The notes below the pieces were generated by a model. The model was given only the letters and a program-made list of their open reading frames with translations. It was not told the DNA's origin and searched no databases. The position numbers and the translations under genes are program-made. Shown here piece after piece: positions 1 through 10,629 of a stretch of 64,000 nucleotides of DNA (the stretch's first letter is position 1; each line of letters opens with the position of its first letter). Source of the stretch: a virus (Duplodnaviria > Heunggongvirae > Uroviricota > Caudoviricetes); IMG/VR virus record IMGVR_UViG_2913167280_000003, positions 27,299 to 91,298 of that record. One strand, 5' to 3'.

Positions 1-1042
1 ACTGACTTTTATTTGGATGCCATCCTGAAATAAATATCTTATTGATATTCTGAACATTATAAGCACCATCTAATTTCTCTTGCTGGCCCTCACCCCAAGC
101 TTTTACCCAGGACAGGCCTGGGATGTTACGCACCAGAAAATACGTATAGTCCCCGCCCCATACGACCTGATCATCATAGGCAAGGTAATATTGTGCACGG
201 TTACGTGTGATCTCCGTTGTTTCGGCATCGGTACCGGCGGTTATAGGTGTCGTTGTCTTAACTGAAATCGAGTTAGCTAAATTAGCCGCAGAATCGACAG
301 GCGTCAGATTTTGGCCAGCAACCAGAGTTATATCGCCGTTGGTACACCAGACCTTAAGCGTAATTGTCGAACCTTCCGGCGGTATTTGCCCAATTAGTCC
401 ATCGCCGAATCGAACGCCCAACTGTTCGGATGGTTTATAAAACTCAACATAGACCTGGCTTTTACTACCAGCTAACCGGAACATAGTGCTGGAAGACCAC
501 TGCGTAGTCTTACCATCGGTCGTCACGAATACTTCCAGCTTATAGCAGACAGCAGTGAGAGCCTTTGATAATACGACTTCCAGAAATTCTTTGGCCGCCG
601 TAACGGTATATGTCACCTCCTGAATTTCCAACTGCGCCACTTCTACCGTACCGGCGCCGTCAACCAATCTGCATACATCCATAGTCATGTAAGGGTACTG
701 GTCGTCAGATATTAAAGGCGTGTTTTTGGGGATTACCGCTGGGGCATCTTCACTTGTGGCTGTGATCTCAACCATCCCCGATGACGGTGTTGGTTTGGTA
801 CCAACGTAACTGTTCGTTTCTGCCGCTGCCAGGATAGAGGAACGCCGCGTCGCGGTCGATATAAAGCCTTCAGCCAGCGCCGCATCGGCATACTGAAAGC
901 ACCTGTATACAATCTGGGTAATAAACAATGTCAGCATCGAGACAAATTGAGAGCCGACAAACTTCGACCAGAATGAATCTTTCTCGACAAGCTCTTCAAA
1001 CTCTGCGCGAATACTGTCTTTAGTCGGTGTTGTTTTACTCAT
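1..1042 (-). CDS. virion (tail/baseplate) protein, N-terminal part only; gene runs off the window start
   Basis: Minus-strand ATG at 1042-1040 (MSKTTPTKDSIRAEF...) overlapping the stop of the upstream ORF; frame open to position 1; same strand block as sit. Confidence 0.45.
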   Translation of the reverse strand, partial: MSKTTPTKDSIRAEFEELVEKDSFWSKFVGSQFVSMLTLFITQIVYRCFQYADAALAEGFISTATRRSSILAAAETNSYVGTKPTPSSGMVEITATSEDAPAVIPKNTPLISDDQYPYMTMDVCRLVDGAGTVEVAQLEIQEVTYTVTAAKEFLEVVLSKALTAVCYKLEVFVTTDGKTTQWSSSTMFRLAGSKSQVYVEFYKPSEQLGVRFGDGLIGQIPPEGSTITLKVWCTNGDITLVAGQNLTPVDSAANLANSISVKTTTPITAGTDAETTEITRNRAQYYLAYDDQVVWGGDYTYFLVRNIPGLSWVKAWGEGQQEKLDGAYNVQNINKIFISGWHPNKSQ

Positions 1043-1398
1043 AGCACCACGTCCTGTGTGATAGTTATATCCCTGATACGAATGGATATTTTCAACTTAT
1101 CAAAAGCATCCCCCTCGGCTACTGACAAGCCAGAAATCGGTATGTCGGGTAAATCTACCGTCAGTTTTTGCAATAGCATTGCCTCAACCGCAATTTGAAC
1201 ATGCGACAAGTTGGTCGGTTCGTGTTTAAACTGCGGTAAAACATTGCCCCATGACGGATCGCCGTATACCTCACCCTGATAAGTGTTTAGCCACTCATAT
1301 AAACGAGCGCCCCAGGCCTCCTCCTGGGACTCATACGTTTTTACGCCGGATAACTCCAGCGTCAGCAAAGGATCAATTTCGTTATTGTTGGCCATCAA
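1039..1398 (-). CDS. small virion morphogenesis protein (119 aa)
   Basis: ORF in track; 4-bp overlaps with sit stop and with the next gene start indicate translational coupling in a late operon. Confidence 0.5.
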   Translation of the reverse strand: MMANNNEIDPLLTLELSGVKTYESQEEAWGARLYEWLNTYQGEVYGDPSWGNVLPQFKHEPTNLSHVQIAVEAMLLQKLTVDLPDIPISGLSVAEGDAFDKLKISIRIRDITITQDVVL

Positions 1399-4300
1399 TC
1401 AACTCTCGCGTAGTCATTCATCAACGGATCATCAATTGACAGTGGTACCGTGCGCATAACGCCCGGCTGAGGCGTGCTGACCTTTACGACAGTTCCCTGG
1501 CCTTTCGCCGAGTCTTTGGTGTGCTCTTCAATCCTGGCAAGCAATGAGGTCATCTGCGCAAACAGCCGCTTCGTTTCACCATCAAGTGAAACGGTATTAT
1601 CAGCCAACTGCATTGTCGGCTTGGCACCGGAACCGCCTAGGTCACTAATAACCTGCCCGTCTATCTGCATACGACCAGTTGGTTGCTGCAAATCGTTGGC
1701 GACAGTCGTCACTTGCGACGTGGTGGCTGGTTCAGGCGCATTACTTTTCCGCATCCCCGGCGCGTTGCGGACTTTATCGAACAGCCCATCTATCCCCATT
1801 TGTGCGCCGAGCTGGTCAAAGTAACTTGAGTTGTTAGCAACCGGACGCGCCTCTTCAACTGGCATAGGTGTATCAACATACACATTGCCAGCTGCCGTTG
1901 CGGTTCCCTTTCCTCGTGCACGTTCTTCGAGGGTTCCCTGGACGACTTCTCGACGCATCCCCCGGCCATTCATAAATTTGTTGACCAGATCGTTAACGCC
2001 AACAGCATTGCCGATTTTGTCTACCAGACCGTCTTTCTCAAACGGGCTATCACCAGGGGTAAACGCCAGGCCAGTAGACTGATCGATAACGGCGTTATCA
2101 GGCAGTGGTCCCATCACTCCAGATTGCGCCCCACCCTGTGCTCCTGCTCCAGGTGTATAGATTTCACCACCTAAATAGCGAGCACGATGAGTATTGACCT
2201 TGATCGCATACTCGCGGTTTTCCTTCGATAAGTCACCGGTGCCTTTTTTCCACTTATTAATAGTGCCAAACCCTGCGTTATATGCAGTGATGGCCTCGTT
2301 TAAGTCTCCATTGGCTTGCTTCAGATACTTGCTCATGAGAAGAGCCGCAGCTTCTGCCGATTTCACAGGATCAAACGATTCACCTTTAGCTAAGCCAGTC
2401 TCTTCACGAGCAATGCCCGTGAACTGAAACATCCCTAGAGCACCAGTTTGGGATTTTGCGTACGGATTACCACCAGATTCAGTTGCAGCAATCGCGTAAA
2501 GAGTGCCTTCAGGAAGACCATATTTATTCTCTAGTTCAGCAAAATACGGAGCTAACTTATCGAGATTTGCCTTACCTTCAGCGCCAAGGCTTCCGACTTT
2601 TACATCTAAGTTGCCATTATTGTAGGTATCAGCAGCTTTCTGAATGTCATTCCTAGTGCCGGTGGTATTACGCGACGATGATGACGAGCTATTTTGTCCA
2701 ATAGCTGTATCAATTTTCCGCACCGCGCTATTGCCCGTTTCTACGGCATTTGCATTGATAATCTGATTGGCAGTTTCTTTAACTGTTTTATTGCTATCTT
2801 TCGCCGTGTCCAGTGCCGCATTTATCACGCGGGTAGCAATATTAGTCTGTTTGGCATCGGATTCAGTTTTAGAATCAGATGTCTCCTGGTGGCTATTAAC
2901 CGGAGCTTTTAACTCTGGAGTGATTTCTTTTGCATTAGCCTCGCCGATCGGATTGGGTATTTTTGATACAATCATTGCCGCAGGGGTATTTTTAACGGCA
3001 TCAACCGCTGCATCTAATGCTTTACCGGGTAAATTTTTAACCCCATCCCAAATATTACCAGCCGCCTCTTTAATGTGTTTCCCTGGGTTCTTAATGAAGT
3101 CAATTGCACTATCAATTGCATCACTGAAAACCTGTTTCAGGTTATCGACAGTAAAGAAGTCTTTTATGGCATCCAGCTTTTCAAGCAACTTATTAGATGT
3201 ATCGCTAAACCATGCTGAAACAGCATCACCAATCTTTGCTGTGTAATCATCGAACTTGGTAGAAATGGTGTCGCCAATGTTAGAAATATATGTTTCTAAG
3301 TTGGTAATCCCACTATCAATGGCCTGGGCAATACTTTCCGTCGAAAATGATTGCAACATATTGCCGATATCCTCAAATCCAAGTGATTTGAGAACATCAC
3401 CAATAGCACTGCTAATACCAGATACCAGTCCCCCCATATCGAGAACATTGGCTAACGTATAAGCGGCTTTTTGCTGGAATGACGGATCTTGTCCTGATTT
3501 AAGCCCAAACGCTCGACGTTGCGCTTCTGTATCATTCCAACCGGTTACCGCATCATAAATACCTCCAGCCACTGTGCCGACTAGGGGAATTGCGCGTAAC
3601 GCCCCTTTACCAACTGCCTTTAACCCCAGTTTACCAGCTGCCCGGGCAGCCAAATCTCCGCCTTCATGGGCGAGAGTCTTCTTGCCCCCACCGCGTAGCA
3701 TTCCTACGAGTTTCTTTGCCCCCAGAGCGCCAAAAGCGAGTGCTCCCGCTTTTTTCAGCATGCCACGCCCCATTAATAACGACGCGACGCCTCCGGCCCC
3801 CTTCCCTAACAGGCTAAATAATTTGGACAGCAAGCCGCCCTTCTTTTTCCCGGTGTTTTTGCCTATCTGTTCAAGGGCGCGGAGAATCTTGTCATTGCCC
3901 TCTTTAATTTCGCTGGTCTGATCCTGAAGTTCCTGAACCGTCCGTTTTTGGGTGTTAACCTGAACGACATCGGCACTACTTTGCGATTTACGCCTAAAAA
4001 AACCTTTTCTACGGCTGTTATCGTCATTGCCACGAATCACATCAGCAATAGACTTTCTGGCACCATTAAGCGATCCGCCAACTTCTTTTGATATCCCGCC
4101 AAGCTCTTTTCCCGCTGCCCACAATGGGTCAGCAACGGCATAACCTAAAGCATCGACGGCACGAGTCTCTGAAGGGTTACCTATACCTTCAGCTACTTTT
4201 GACAGTTTTTTTAATAAACCTGATTCAGCATTTAGACGCTCATCATCCTCTTTGCGCCTGGCCTTTTCAGCGCGTTCAGCACGGGCATCTTCCGATGCGG

Positions 4301-6386: not shown

Positions 6387-7004
<618 letters not shown>

Positions 7005-7106
7005 TCCATTGAGTGGGAATATTGCCGTCTGGGAGTAATATGGTATCATTAAGTTAGAGTAGGTAGTGTAGATGGAATGAGGAGTATCATATGGTTATCA
7101 CACAAT

Positions 7107-7136
7107 CAGGTTGCTTTGAGTCAGGTTGTTTTGAGT
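7107..7136. repeat. tandem 15-bp direct repeat (CAGGTTGCTTTGAGT x2, one mismatch)
   Basis: Seen directly; sits just upstream of a terminator hairpin in the divergent intergenic region. Confidence 0.7.
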
Positions 7137-7147
7137 AAAACAATAAA

Positions 7148-7172
7148 ACGCCCTTTAATGGGCGTATTTTTT
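7148..7172 (+). terminator. intrinsic terminator-like hairpin (ACGCCC-TTTAAT-GGGCGT followed by T-run)
   Basis: 6-bp GC-rich stem followed by ATTTTTT; 10 bp upstream of the 7183 ATG. Confidence 0.55.
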
Positions 7173-7182
7173 AGGATTTAAA

Positions 7183-8076
7183 ATGCATTCTTTACAGAAA
7201 TACATAAAACATAAATATACTCACTTAACTTTTTTTCTCTCATTACTTTTTTTCATGATATTTGAATCGCGAGAAGATCTTATCAAGAAAATATTATCTT
7301 TTTCTCTCAATGAAGTTTTACCATTCTTAATGTTTGCGTTCTTCTCCGTATTTATCAGCATAACGATAAAGGAAAAGATAGCAAAGAAATACCCAGAAAC
7401 AAACGATGGGATTACCATTATAGCTTTAATCTTTGGTGTAACACTATATAGTGTGTTTATCTTATATTATTTATATGGTGATGTATACCAATCCACAATT
7501 GCTTTACTTATAAGTTCTGTGCTACTTGGTTCTGGGTGGTGGGTTCAGGCTACTGTGAGTAAAGTAGCCGCAAGAAAATCACACACCTTAAATACACTAA
7601 TGAATCAAAGAAACAGTGAATTATTTCACAAGAAAGTTTCATCGGTAGCGAATACGTTCGGGCTTAGAAAAACCATAAATGAAATTATTGCCAAACAAAG
7701 ACTTGTCCCAAATGATAAAGATTTAAAAAATAAAAAGGTCCATGATGAATACATATCAGCAGGTAATGATATGTTCTTCGTTCTTAATTATTATGAATTT
7801 ATCTGTTCAGGAATAATAAATGGGGACTTTGATGAAGATTCAATGAGAGAATGTCTTGGACAAATTGTTCCAGGTCTCGAAGTTAGAGCATTTCATTTTA
7901 TAAGAATTGCAAGAGAAATTTCAGGGAGTAGCTGCTTCTGTAATTTTGTCGCTGTTTCAGACAAATGGTCTACTAATGGAGGCTCTCTTATTCTCAGACA
8001 CGAGAAAGGAGAACCTGTGATTAATAACCTGACCCATTGCTTTGAAGAAACAGACTGTTTTAACATAACTTCTTAA
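7183..8076 (+). CDS. AT-rich accessory membrane protein, about 4 predicted TM helices plus ~170-aa C-terminal domain (297 aa)
   Basis: Hydrophobic segments LTFFLSLLFFMIF, LPFLMFAFFSVFISITI, ITIIALIFGVTLYSVFILYYLYG, IALLISSVLLGSGWW; AT-rich composition unlike flanking backbone; hairpins on both sides. Confidence 0.6.
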   Translation: MHSLQKYIKHKYTHLTFFLSLLFFMIFESREDLIKKILSFSLNEVLPFLMFAFFSVFISITIKEKIAKKYPETNDGITIIALIFGVTLYSVFILYYLYGDVYQSTIALLISSVLLGSGWWVQATVSKVAARKSHTLNTLMNQRNSELFHKKVSSVANTFGLRKTINEIIAKQRLVPNDKDLKNKKVHDEYISAGNDMFFVLNYYEFICSGIINGDFDEDSMRECLGQIVPGLEVRAFHFIRIAREISGSSCFCNFVAVSDKWSTNGGSLILRHEKGEPVINNLTHCFEETDCFNITS

Positions 8077-8082
8077 TATTTT

Positions 8083-8109
8083 GTAACCCATAATCGCTTT
8101 ATGGGTTAC
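8083..8109 (+). terminator. hairpin downstream of the 297-aa gene (GTAACCCA...TGGGTTAC)
   Basis: 8-bp perfect stem with 11-nt loop; no strong T-run, so terminator function uncertain. Confidence 0.35.
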
Positions 8110-8130: not shown

Positions 8131-8311
8131 TCAATCGCCGGGCTTTAAGCATCCATCGTTTTTGGCTTGTTGATATAACTTACTTAGCCCAGAAAGAGGG
8201 AATGTGGCAATTTTTTCATTATCAACATAAGCATCAATCACATTAGCATTTGAATCTGCTGCATCCTGCCAAAAGGCATACCACCAAGAATCTCCAACCA
8301 TTGACCCAAGA
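8131..8311 (-). pseudogene. remnant of a paralog of the 154-aa gene (C-terminal ~57 codons only)
   Basis: Minus-strand translation ...DSWWYAFWQDAADSNANVIDAYVDNEKIATFPLSGLSKLYQQAKNDGCLKPGD* aligns with C-terminus of ORF 9673-10137 (...REWYSFWKSASATKEKNMDVYIG...SSIYKEAKNDGCLK); no intact N-terminus. Confidence 0.45.
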
Positions 8312-8400
8312 GGGATTTGACGTCTTCGAGTAATTGTCGTTGTGTCATTGACACCTCGTAGAATCTGGTGTGTTAACCGATTCTACGAGTTATCATTTGT
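8312..8400. repeat. ~88-bp direct repeat copy 2, including duplicated start codon and 12 codons ([12 protein letters not shown]) of the 188-aa gene
   Basis: Near-identical to 6917-7004; the duplicated start at 8346 is followed by a stop after about 36 codons. Confidence 0.85.
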
Positions 8401-8501: not shown

Positions 8502-9686
8502 TCAAGCTTTAAGAGGCTTTGTGTATGTTCGTGTAATCCATCCAGTAATAAACTCGTCCCCTGATTTAACCTGCACGAAAAGCCATTGGCGATCTTTTTT
8601 ATCTAAAATAGCAACAATTGTATTTTTACCAATGCACTCTATCACTTCACTATTTAAAGAAGGACTGACATGTAATCTTACATTATCACCTGTTATAGCT
8701 CTAAAATTATTAAGATCCTCCCACTGAATATCTTTATTTTCTTGTGTTAGCTTTTGCTTAGATATTGGCTTATCCTCATTTAGGGATAGAATATATGATT
8801 CCATCCCGTAAATTTGCGATAATGTTTTTTCTTTCGCATAATCAGTTATAGCGCCAAGAAATACTTGACACAAAATCCACAGAAGAAAAGTCTGAACAGG
8901 AGAAGGAAGCGCCTTAAATGAATCAATAAACGTCGAACTAGATTTATTTAATCCTTTGTCTTGAGCATCACTTTCAGTGTGTGATGTTTCAATGGCACCT
9001 TCGATATAAGCCTGTGCAATTGTTGAAAGACCTTGCTCCATTATTTGATGAAATGAAGCCTTTTGTGCTTGAGTATATTGATTTAATAATTCTTTTATTT
9101 CATTGTTTAAATCTATCTTGTGAGTTACATTTTTCCGCAATTCATTAAGCATTGCTTGCATGTTATTCAAGCCAGCTTGCTTATTAAGCATCTCGAACTG
9201 GTTTCGTAACGGCATAGCTATTTCGGCCTGTTTCCTTAGCATTTGAATGTGTTTATTTGCATCATGAGTGGAAAAAGCCTGAGCCTGTTTCTGTAAAATA
9301 TCAATATGTTTACGAAACTCGTTGCCTATTCCTGCCAGTTTCGGCATATTCTCAAACTGTTTTCGAATAGAATCACTAACTATGGATTGCAAATTAAATC
9401 TTGCTATTTGTTCTTGAGCTAGCTGTCCTATTCTTAACTGTTTTTGCAAGTTTGCCATATGTTCTTTATACGATGGAATGATTGCGTTTTTTTGCAGTTC
9501 CGCCAACTGTCTAACCAAATTATTAGAAGCATAATCTGATTTTAATAAATCACTTACCGATTTATATTCGGGCATTTTGATTTTATTTAAATCATCACGC
9601 CAAGTAATATTTGAATCTTTATTATAAAGATCGCTTACTGAGCCAAGAGCAAGTTTTTTAATGTCCTTCACTTTATTCACCGTCAT
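8502..9686 (-). CDS. accessory protein with helical repeat region and C-terminal SH3-like domain (394 aa)
   Basis: Repeated helical motifs (LQKQAQAF, MLRKQAEIA, MLNKQAGL) and C-terminal segment NVRLHVSPSLNSEVIECIGKNTIVAILDKKDRQWLFVQVKSGDEFITGWITRTY resembling bacterial SH3 domains; AT-rich. Confidence 0.6.
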   Translation of the reverse strand: MTVNKVKDIKKLALGSVSDLYNKDSNITWRDDLNKIKMPEYKSVSDLLKSDYASNNLVRQLAELQKNAIIPSYKEHMANLQKQLRIGQLAQEQIARFNLQSIVSDSIRKQFENMPKLAGIGNEFRKHIDILQKQAQAFSTHDANKHIQMLRKQAEIAMPLRNQFEMLNKQAGLNNMQAMLNELRKNVTHKIDLNNEIKELLNQYTQAQKASFHQIMEQGLSTIAQAYIEGAIETSHTESDAQDKGLNKSSSTFIDSFKALPSPVQTFLLWILCQVFLGAITDYAKEKTLSQIYGMESYILSLNEDKPISKQKLTQENKDIQWEDLNNFRAITGDNVRLHVSPSLNSEVIECIGKNTIVAILDKKDRQWLFVQVKSGDEFITGWITRTYTKPLKA

Positions 9687-10137
9687 CTTGCTTTAAACAC
9701 CCATCATTTTTAGCTTCCTTGTAAATACTTGAAATGCCATCAAGAGAGAATGATGTAATTCGACGCGATCCGATATATACATCCATGTTTTTTTCTTTTG
9801 TGGCTGACGCTGACTTCCAAAAAGAATACCATTCCCTACGATTAGGAGAAGTGTTTTGCGTGCCAATATTAAAACTATCCGAACCAACAATTAAAGTAAT
9901 TACATCTGCTTTACGAGAAATTGTGTCGCGTGTAGAAAAATCGGCATTCTCTTTTCCTCCGCTTACATACAAATTTCTTCCAGCGATATGGTCTTCAGAA
10001 CCATCCCTTGCACCAGCATCACAAGAAAAATTAATTGTATAGCCATCCTCATGACATGCTCCGGCAAAGCGCCTCATTTGACGCTCCTGTTGACCATCTT
10101 GTCTTAACTGGAATTTAAATGCTTGTAGTCGTTTCAT
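9673..10137 (-). CDS. accessory protein of unknown function (154 aa), first gene of two-gene operon
   Basis: ORF overlapping downstream gene by 14 bp; a degenerate partial copy exists at 8131-8311. Confidence 0.55.
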   Translation of the reverse strand: MKRLQAFKFQLRQDGQQERQMRRFAGACHEDGYTINFSCDAGARDGSEDHIAGRNLYVSGGKENADFSTRDTISRKADVITLIVGSDSFNIGTQNTSPNRREWYSFWKSASATKEKNMDVYIGSRRITSFSLDGISSIYKEAKNDGCLKQDDGE

Positions 10138-10299
10138 CCCACTATTTTAAACAAAAACAGTTAGGTGGAGAACCGCGCCTTATATCCCCACCCTGAAGGA
10201 CGGGGTTTTACGGCGCACCGGATAACTCATTTAGGGTACATATTTTCGCCTTTAAAAAAAAGAGGTTATTAGATCCATTTGTGTATTTATTAAACAGAT

Positions 10300-10316: not shown

Positions 10317-10489
10317 GTATTTTTAAGTCGCGAATGCTATCTTTTCGCATCATATTGACCTTTTAATCGTTCAGGCTTATAGTTCCGCCGTCGTAGCAAA
10401 TTCTGCGACCAGGTTTGACAGCCTGAAAACTTACGCGGACAACCGCACATTTCCGATATTGCGGTATTTTTGTGTCCGTAAAACCACGT

Positions 10490-10575
10490 TACGCCCGAAT
10501 TATGGTGGGGCGTGATGGGGAGGCTTCGGCCTGCTGGTTTCGTAAGTGCCAGTCTGTCAACCCTGTCACGTCCTG
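10490..10575 (+). ncRNA. c4: c4-like antisense RNA (immI repressor RNA); exact ends not determined
   Basis: Contains a' CGTAAGT (10541-10547) and b' CTGTCAA (10554-10560), complementary to b1/a1 (TTGACAG 10415-10421, ACTTACG 10429-10435) and b2/a2 (10584-10590, 10612-10618); a2 overlaps the icd RBS. Confidence 0.55.
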
Positions 10576-10629
10576 CCACCTGTTTGACAGCGGGTCGCAG
10601 GTTGTTTATCAACTTACGAGGCCGTAACT

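Follow-up and report, generated by a model that had tools for sequence, protein, structure and literature searches.

A short leader ORF and an intrinsic terminator ahead of a DUF4760 membrane-protein gene in the sim slot of a P1-like element

A promoter followed by a short translated leader, an intrinsic terminator and a gene is the layout of ribosome-dependent attenuation, as in the trp and his leaders, pyrBI and pyrE, tnaC, and the inducible erm, cat and cmlA genes. Here we analyze a gene with a similar layout in a 64,000-nucleotide stretch of viral DNA (Caudoviricetes; IMG/VR record IMGVR_UViG_2913167280_000003, positions 27,299 to 91,298), which we refer to as the window. The gene encodes a 297-amino-acid (aa) protein of the DUF4760 family and occupies the place at which phage P1 carries its sim genes. 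An earlier reading of the same DNA, which we call the original prediction, had described the gene as terminator-insulated and self-contained and had proposed for it a membrane exclusion or abortive-infection function, a role that we also infer from genomic context.

The locus shares with the attenuators of trp, his, pheA, pyrBI, pyrE, tnaC, ermK, cat, cmlA, speFL and mgtL a short open reading frame (ORF) led by a Shine-Dalgarno (SD) sequence, a nearby terminator and then a gene, together with conservation at the level of the peptide and a tandem motif. It differs from them in that its leader region matches no Rfam leader family, that no antiterminator helix is conserved among DUF4760 loci, and that the gene specifies a membrane protein of mobile elements rather than a biosynthetic or resistance function. 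The leader motif, a proline-free C-terminal [DE]x0-1G-x-G or SGCxE, resembles no leader that we know of. With simABC the gene has in common the slot between LPsit/pmgC and c4-icd-ant and the character of accessory, envelope-directed cargo expressed in the lysogen. However, the two share no sequence similarity, sim runs leftward toward pmgC whereas the DUF4760 gene is on the plus strand, and sim lacks a leader-peptide/terminator unit. Likewise, SimC is secreted with a signal peptide, whereas the DUF4760 protein is predicted to be a polytopic inner-membrane protein with a cytoplasmic domain. The locus also resembles a moron as defined by Hendrix and Juhala, being an autonomous promoter-gene-terminator unit of deviant GC content between backbone genes with a patchy distribution among relatives. 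Like T4 Imm, P22 SieA and SieB, HK97 gp15 and lambda RexB, it is a single gene for a membrane protein, and DUF4760 genes recur at prophage ends and between tail genes; unlike those genes, to which it has no homology (Pfam, PADLOC), its expression is apparently attenuator-gated and not constitutive.

The leader and terminator upstream of DUF4760 genes

The DUF4760 gene and the signals around it are the following.

7022..7049, plus strand: candidate sigma-70 promoter (TTGCCG, 16-nt spacer, TG-TATCAT; 9/12 in a consensus scan, extended -10)
7080..7138, plus strand: leader unit, with SD sequence AGGAG at 7080-7084, 6 nt, ATG at 7091, and a 15-codon ORF (7091-7138) encoding MVITQSGCFESGCFE and a stop codon
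7148..7172, plus strand: upstream intrinsic-terminator hairpin and T6 (ACGCCC/GGGCGT, 6-nt loop; stem 7148-7165, T-run 7167-7172)
7183..8076, plus strand: DUF4760 gene, with ATG start and AGGA at 7173-7176; 297-aa predicted inner-membrane protein with four transmembrane (TM) helices
8082..8110, plus strand: downstream hairpin, with an 11-12 bp stem (-15.6 kcal/mol), between the DUF4760 stop codon and a convergent minus-strand remnant ORF

The site at 7022-7049 is the only rightward promoter-like site between pmgC and the leader ORF. The upstream hairpin (-11.8 kcal/mol; z = -3.0 versus shuffled sequence; terminator-like on both strands) begins 9 nt past the leader stop codon, and its T-run ends only 10 nt ahead of the DUF4760 ATG, so that no independent promoter is possible past the terminator. 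The downstream hairpin has a z of -4.5 on either strand, is terminator-like on the plus strand, and is likely to be the 3' end of the module. Since a terminator scan found 3 candidates in the region versus 2.7 expected in shuffled sequence, the significance of these hairpins rests on their conservation and not on the scan. A longer, 34-codon ORF at 7077-7181 was ruled out as the leader, having no ribosome-binding site and no conservation.

These features agree with much of the original prediction. The AT-rich ORF (32.6% GC versus 46-49% in the neighboring kilobases) is indeed bracketed by two hairpins, and the layout of promoter-like site, leader, terminator, gene and downstream hairpin, low in GC and set between backbone genes, can properly be called self-contained. 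"Terminator-insulated" does not hold, however. Since the only plausible promoter of the gene is upstream of this hairpin, the hairpin would gate the gene rather than shield it; an identical hairpin also adjoins the stop codon of simC in P1, where there is no DUF4760 gene. The predicted tandem 15-bp repeat is present (7106-7120 and 7121-7135; 14/15 bases the same), but it is not a separate element at the DNA level: its units are leader codons 6-10 and 11-15, two in-frame copies of Ser-Gly-Cys-Phe-Glu in a conserved leader peptide. The repeat and the upstream hairpin are therefore parts of one leader ORF/terminator unit that belongs to the gene, and are not independent insulators.

We surveyed the 58 DUF4760 loci whose upstream sequence was long enough; they came from genomes, metagenomes and viral contigs and covered Enterobacteria, Pseudomonas, phages, and alpha- and beta-proteobacteria. 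A terminator was scored as a hairpin with a T-run at most 60 nt upstream of the start codon, and a leader as an SD-preceded ORF of 5-35 codons ending at most 45 nt before the hairpin; 529 other ORFs of at least 150 codons from the same loci served as controls. A hairpin with a T-run was found upstream of the DUF4760 gene in 45/58 loci. Terminator and leader ORF together were found in 41/58, versus 12/529 control ORFs, counts that include related loci and leaders and statistics that ignore kinship. The double-SGCxE pattern of the window's leader, when scanned against viral contigs, matched P1-like contigs only, which provides no evidence for such a leader before other gene families.

The unit is present in elements unrelated to P1. 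In a P4-like satellite of Erwinia rhapontici, the homologue (46% identical) is preceded by the leader MKKFDSGCFDSGCFD and a stop codon, then by its own, different hairpin with T7. In E. coli phage phi467, MKKTLTVGFGEG and a stop codon are followed by a hairpin and then the DUF4760 gene. In total, 32 distinct leaders were collected, which include (SGC[FLI][ED]) in two to three copies, MIITNSGCQE, and (EHGAL) in four copies. Pseudomonas leaders read M..IGC[ED]E, those of phage Riah and Acinetobacter phage TRS1 read MKLETGVGAG and ...ADGYGIG, and the alpha- and beta-proteobacterial ones read M..EG[AT]GNG, M.R[IL]DGIGDVI and MRNDGIVGG. The type of motif tracks the DUF4760 subfamily: SGCxE accompanies the enterobacterial 4-TM proteins, IGCEE the Pseudomonas proteins, and EGxGNG the short forms of alpha- and beta-proteobacteria. 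Leaders are 8-29 residues long and carry 1-4 copies of the repeat, the last of which always abuts the stop codon.

Against 564 control small ORFs, a glycine lies within the last seven residues in 32/32 leaders (34% of controls), [DE]x0-1G occurs in 26/32 (6%), and proline occurs in 0/32 (61%), with Fisher p values from 6e-15 to 4e-23 that again take no account of kinship. The codons for these residues vary synonymously (Ser TCN/AGT; Gly GGT/GGA/GGC; Cys TGC/TGT; Leu TTA/CTT), which indicates selection on the leader peptide or its decoding and not on the RNA sequence. From one lineage to the next, the hairpins have no sequence in common. Terminator and start codon are separated by a median of about 20 nt (33 loci), leaving no room for a separate promoter in the homologues, and promoter-like sites lie 40-70 nt ahead of the leader in the Erwinia satellite (L007; TTGAGC-16-TAAAAT) and in a Pseudomonas phage locus (L009; TTGGCA-17-TAAATT). 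The literature that we searched does not link leader peptides, attenuation and anti-phage genes to the DUF4760 family, and in the sources searched the conserved leader-peptide/terminator unit appears to be undescribed.

Judging from sequence, we tentatively read the locus, with a probability somewhat short of even, as a self-contained moron whose membrane effector, probably one of phage defense or exclusion, is gated by leader-peptide-dependent read-through of the terminator. Transcription from the 7022-7049 promoter would mostly end at about 7172, and the DUF4760 protein would be made only when the terminator is read through. The extent of read-through would be set by the behavior of the ribosome on the Gly-containing motif that abuts the leader stop codon, that is, by ribosome-dependent transcription attenuation. 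The DUF4760 protein would then be a conditionally expressed membrane effector that aids the lysogen against other phages, as we infer from its genomic context.

Several observations weigh against this reading. The leader stop codon mostly lies 12-18 nt ahead of the stem in the homologous loci, and at that distance a ribosome terminating on it could probably not open the hairpin directly. Leader codons 12-15 of the window (7123-7133) can form pairs at 10/11 positions with the terminator's 5' arm (7144-7154); among the 27 loci that we folded, the 5' arm pairs upstream in a minority, and we found no antiterminator pairing common to the loci. This inconsistency means that an RNA switch is not established. 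Sim-type P1-like plasmids that lack DUF4760 still have the leader and hairpin, and since the hairpin also ends the sim operon, its conservation in P1-like elements is partly independent of DUF4760. The protein matches no PADLOC defense model and has no informative structural relative; the evidence from defense contexts, about ten loci without a background comparison, is anecdotal; and the counted loci and leaders lack phylogenetic independence.

The conservation of the leader as a peptide, with a motif type that co-varies with the DUF4760 subfamily, would also be expected of a two-gene system, which is the main rival to attenuation. The micropeptide would act in trans on or with the DUF4760 protein, as a ligand, substrate, antitoxin-like partner or exported signal, and the terminator would set a high ratio of peptide to membrane protein. 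A terminator sets the peptide/protein ratio in this way in mccA–mccB of microcin C and in many operons for ribosomally synthesized and post-translationally modified peptides. The strong ribosome-binding sites of the leaders suit such an arrangement, as does our failure to find a conserved antiterminator, and the invariant basic or polar residues R131, H134, R143 and R235 of the cytoplasmic domain could bind an acidic peptide. On the other hand, a peptide of only 8-29 residues without a signal sequence would be unstable in the cytoplasm, a repeat number of 1-4 with the last copy at the stop codon is more typical of cis-acting leaders, and intact leaders outlast DUF4760 in sim-type plasmids while the P1 leader has decayed. 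A trans-acting peptide would constitute a new micropeptide–membrane protein system, an explanation to which we give a low probability.

Of all our results, the leader-peptide/terminator unit is the most interesting and the most testable. The gene alone would be one more annotated hypothetical protein, whereas a leader and terminator found family-wide make it a testable regulatory system. If the leader acts in cis, it would represent a new leader-peptide family for the cargo of phages, satellites and islands across Proteobacteria, and it would provide a handle on what these elements sense, with an inducer that can be screened for by a simple reporter. A broader proposal, which we consider improbable as a whole, is that DUF4760 modules are widespread, undescribed, single-gene conditional membrane effectors of mobile elements, switched on by a new arrest or regulatory leader (C-terminal [DE]x0-1G-x-G or SGCxE) that senses an altered state of the translating ribosome, for example when infection changes a tRNA, a metabolite or the ribosome itself. 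If so, a phage-defense or exclusion gene would be wired to translational status through transcription attenuation, but the evidence has equal room for a peptide that acts in trans.

The DUF4760 protein and its genomic contexts

The 297-aa protein matches Pfam DUF4760 (PF15956) with E = 8.7e-14 and 52.3 bits against a gathering cutoff of 25, residues 120-262 aligning to profile positions 13-141 of 141. It also matches phrog_21275 (E = 1e-191) and is identical to RefSeq WP_130261321.1 of Escherichia sp. E2593, which belongs to a 199-member 90% cluster found chiefly on E. coli plasmids. Between P1-like copies of the gene, pN/pS is 0.09-0.17, indicating that the gene is functional and under purifying selection. 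An exhaustive profile search gave 704 representative relatives (E <= 1e-10 for 295), and DUF4760 was the sole recurrent domain in all 130 representatives scanned (130/130). Seven residues (G118, H134, R143, N202, E205, F206 and D217 in the numbering of the window protein) are at least 90% conserved over these 130 diverse representatives, and the window protein has all of them. The full 4-TM architecture was found in 23 relatives by a word-index search, and by sequence the 4-TM N-terminal extension defines a DUF4760 subfamily.

Searches for a function returned little beyond the family itself. The 297-aa protein matched no defense family in PADLOC-DB 2.0 at E <= 1, only families of unknown function in PHROGs, no holin family in Pfam at E <= 1, and a single, far-sub-cutoff chance match in NCBIfam (E = 0.039; 13.2 bits versus a cutoff of 295.55). 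BLASTP against the Sim proteins gave a best E of 9.1 (SimC) and nothing for SimA or SimB, and the P7 proteins of the same slot showed no similarity either. Full-text literature searches for "DUF4760" found it merely as a listed gene in a Serratia genomic island, with no function described; PF15956, the WP accessions and the phrog identifier are not mentioned, nor is DUF4760 in the papers on P1-like phage-plasmids and P2/P4 hotspots. By these comparisons, the protein is a new member of a known but uncharacterized family, with no link to Sim, to a PADLOC defense family or to a solved fold.

The four hydrophobic helices and soluble C-terminal domain of the original prediction are borne out by hydropathy and AlphaFold2 alike. 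Hydropathy places the hydrophobic segments at approximately residues 14-28, 43-63, 76-98 and 103-123, and in the AlphaFold2 model (17 homologues; mean pLDDT 81.7) residues 11-28, 42-69, 71-98 and 103-143 form long helices, beyond which the C-terminal domain is entirely helical. Net charges in the 17-sequence alignment are +2.3 at the N-terminus, -0.4, +1.3 and -0.6 in loops 1 to 3, and +3.7 after TM4. These charges follow the positive-inside rule and thus predict an N-in/C-in topology, with the DUF4760 domain (about 120-262) facing the cytoplasm. The K-rich N-terminus is followed by helices that are predicted to be retained, without the arrangement of a cleavable signal peptide. The suggested structure search found no informative fold match, and a sequence search against solved structures gave TM-segment noise only.

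This topology bears on the possibility that the protein is a classical superinfection-exclusion factor, that is, a weak, constitutive inner-membrane blocker of phage DNA entry whose hairpin just keeps expression low. T4 Imm, P22 SieA and HK97 gp15 are functional models of DNA-entry exclusion. The exact simCBA slot, the envelope proteins encoded by other cassettes of the slot, and the position of the TRS1 relative between tail chaperone and tape-measure genes, which is that of HK97 gp15, are all in keeping with this explanation. However, only about 15 + 5 residues of the protein are predicted to be exposed to the periplasm, the conserved domain being cytoplasmic, and a leader and terminator found throughout the family are unexpected for a constitutive blocker. 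Nor is there homology to Sim, and HK97 gp15, considered as a homologue, was ruled out as an unrelated 62-aa protein. We therefore hold constitutive exclusion to be rather improbable. A Sim-like periplasmic block in particular is unlikely because there is no Sim homology, the gene is on the opposite strand and the soluble domain is predicted to be cytoplasmic. From the predicted topology and the proposed gating of expression together, we favor an action that would sense the cytoplasm and resemble abortive infection over a Sim-like block of entry.

DUF4760 genes occur in diverse mobile elements. Erwinia rhapontici's P4-like satellite has one after the alpha primase gene, by an RNase-A-like toxin gene and a kinase/TPR pair; a Serratia genomic island carries another; and in Acinetobacter phage TRS1 the gene forms a moron with flanking terminators, set between the genes for the tail chaperone and the tape measure. 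At Pseudomonas prophage ends it lies downstream of the lysis genes and beside the integrase, in E. coli phage phi467 it lies at the end between recombinase genes, and further relatives adjoin integrases. Within 5 kb we found genes for Mrr-type restriction endonucleases, DUF5677, PD-(D/E)XK and HNH nucleases, an Xre-type antitoxin, an OLD-family nuclease, and a RloB and AAA ATPase pair; AbiL-type and toxin-antitoxin genes also adjoin DUF4760 relatives. Although drawn from about ten loci with no background comparison, these contexts fit cargo of conflicts between mobile elements.

Proximity to lysis genes raises the question of a lysis-related, holin- or antiholin-like membrane protein. The Pseudomonas phage relatives adjoin endolysin or spanin genes: in L009 and L010 the gene is next to Phage_lysozyme and DUF2514 genes, and in phage Riah next to a glycoside hydrolase gene. 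Yet no Pfam holin family was matched, the Riah gene is on the strand opposite the lysis genes, and DUF4760 genes also occur in a satellite and in non-phage islands. Moreover, P1-like elements carry the gene at a distance from their lysis genes, in a lysogeny-associated and immunity-proximal slot, and a prophage end by the lysis genes is a usual site for morons. A lysis function is very improbable.

Another candidate explanation is a membrane protein unrelated to phage, induced by translation stress or antibiotics, that might protect against a ribosome-targeting compound or another stress. Inducible resistance genes (erm, cat, cmlA, ABC-F) have as their standard layout a short leader ORF with a terminator, and here an 8-29-codon leader, a terminator and a gene are found on mobile elements. 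The neighbors, however, are phage, satellite, integrase and nuclease-type defense genes instead of integrons or resistance cassettes, DUF4760 proteins showed neither a transporter nor an enzyme domain (Pfam, 130 representatives), and many members have only one or two TM segments. We regard this explanation as quite unlikely.

The Erwinia satellite (L007) also carries, at 909-3631 on the minus strand after the delta/Ogr gene, a Ser/Thr protein kinase gene and a gene for a 545-aa TPR-like protein. This site may be the canonical P4 hotspot, although no psu gene was identified. The DUF4760 module is at the other end, after the alpha primase gene, and the satellite may thus have two cargo sites.

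The sim slot and the history of its cassettes

A 4.5-kb query around the DUF4760 gene matches P1, P7, SJ46, RCS47 and others solely at both ends, with pmgC on the left and c4-icd-ant on the right, and the gene order of the window is collinear with P1 and P7 (pmgB-tub-pmgC-LPsit ... c4-icd-ant). In P1 the slot is occupied by simC-simB-simA on the minus strand, with the late promoter LPsit and pmgC downstream of them; in P7 it is occupied by upf50.0 and upf50.5. The right border is fixed by Rfam matches to the C4 antisense RNA and its a1/b1 targets at 10377-10583. The original prediction was therefore correct in assigning the gene to the sim-equivalent position. Other cassettes of the slot code for envelope proteins, which have a signal peptide, a lipoprotein signal or TM segments. 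Among 5426 complete E. coli genomes, the full cassette is present in 46, every one on a plasmid, and a further 132 have the leader/hairpin remnant alone, so that the DUF4760 gene is found in 46/178 genomes with this junction. About 30 PLSDB plasmids also have the full cassette. These observations support the conclusion that the DUF4760 gene is horizontally acquired accessory cargo, a moron in the sim slot that codes for a membrane protein. Should the protein be protective, the P1 sim slot would gain a defense or exclusion gene and stand documented as a hotspot of cassette swapping.

P1, 673R5 and every DUF4760-type P1-like plasmid that we examined have an identical upstream hairpin, and DUF4760-type and sim-type elements are identical through leader and hairpin to the last base of the hairpin. 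In P1 (L001, 2150-2264) and in the sim-type plasmids (L002, L077 and L078), leader and hairpin adjoin the simC stop codon. Whereas 673R5 and two sim-type plasmids have an intact leader, that of P1 is broken (MVIT-stop, with one repeat copy). Because the identity of the two types extends exactly to the hairpin's last base, the sim cassette appears to have replaced a DUF4760 gene just past it. By this comparison, a vestige of the DUF4760 module appears to survive in the classic sim locus, which bears on the origin of that locus. In sim-type elements the hairpin may now also end the leftward sim operon, both roles being possible in P1-like elements. The alternative that the hairpin is a mere backbone terminator of the leftward sim operon was dropped, since unrelated elements have their own leader and hairpin. 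In two P1-like contigs of IMG/VR (L079 at ~7620 and L082 at ~14460), an IS1 terminal inverted repeat begins inside the 3' arm of the hairpin (…TTTAATGGG/TGATGCTGCCAACTTACTGAT…, the slash marking the junction), and the hairpin is thus also an IS1 insertion site in some P1-like elements.

The DUF4760 cassette of the window is bracketed by a direct repeat and followed by a remnant of a second gene.

6913..7005, no strand assigned: left copy of a 93-nt direct repeat, comprising LPsit (placed by alignment to the P1 annotation) and the first 13 pmgC codons
8131..8301, minus strand: truncated remnant ORF, the C-terminal 56 aa of a 158-aa signal-peptide protein (phrog_3429)
8308..8400, no strand assigned: right copy of the repeat, 95% identical to the left copy, at the junction to a second, SH3-domain-type cassette

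In the simple arrangement, for example in NZ_CP023961, the DUF4760 gene is followed by two convergent genes, which encode a 158-aa signal-peptide protein and a 116-aa membrane protein. The remnant at 8131-8301 is 96% identical to residues 103-158 of such a protein in a related locus (L005) and now lies behind the duplicated copy of LPsit. Past the right repeat, the second cassette encodes an SH3-domain protein (8502-9686) and a 154-aa protein (9673-10137). Given that the 93-nt repeat brackets one cassette and that a cassette of another type follows, we conclude that recombination within the shared LPsit/pmgC sequence is what stacks cassettes here. A more extensive duplication, pmgB'-tub-pmgC, occupies the corresponding site of plasmid p08_4358-1 (L004) and suggests that cassettes are stacked through homologous recombination.

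The SH3-domain protein is encoded on the minus strand, is 394 aa in length and has a C-terminal bacterial SH3 domain (Pfam E = 1.2e-5; phrog_7086). It is 59% identical to a 357-aa version in related plasmids and, as far as sequence comparison goes, is another uncharacterized, fast-evolving cargo gene of the slot. The 154-aa ORF, also on the minus strand, is chimeric. Its residues 20-154 share 86% identity with a 168-aa signal-peptide protein found in related plasmids, and its N-terminus matches the helix-turn-helix domain of IS605 OrfB/TnpB (Pfam E = 0.0016). Approximately 170 bp at 10053-10222 have no counterpart in P1 or p08_4358-1 and match HK97, HK106 and a Morganella phage. This stretch is probably a remnant of an IS200/IS605-family element that removed the signal peptide and the adjacent simA-domain gene.

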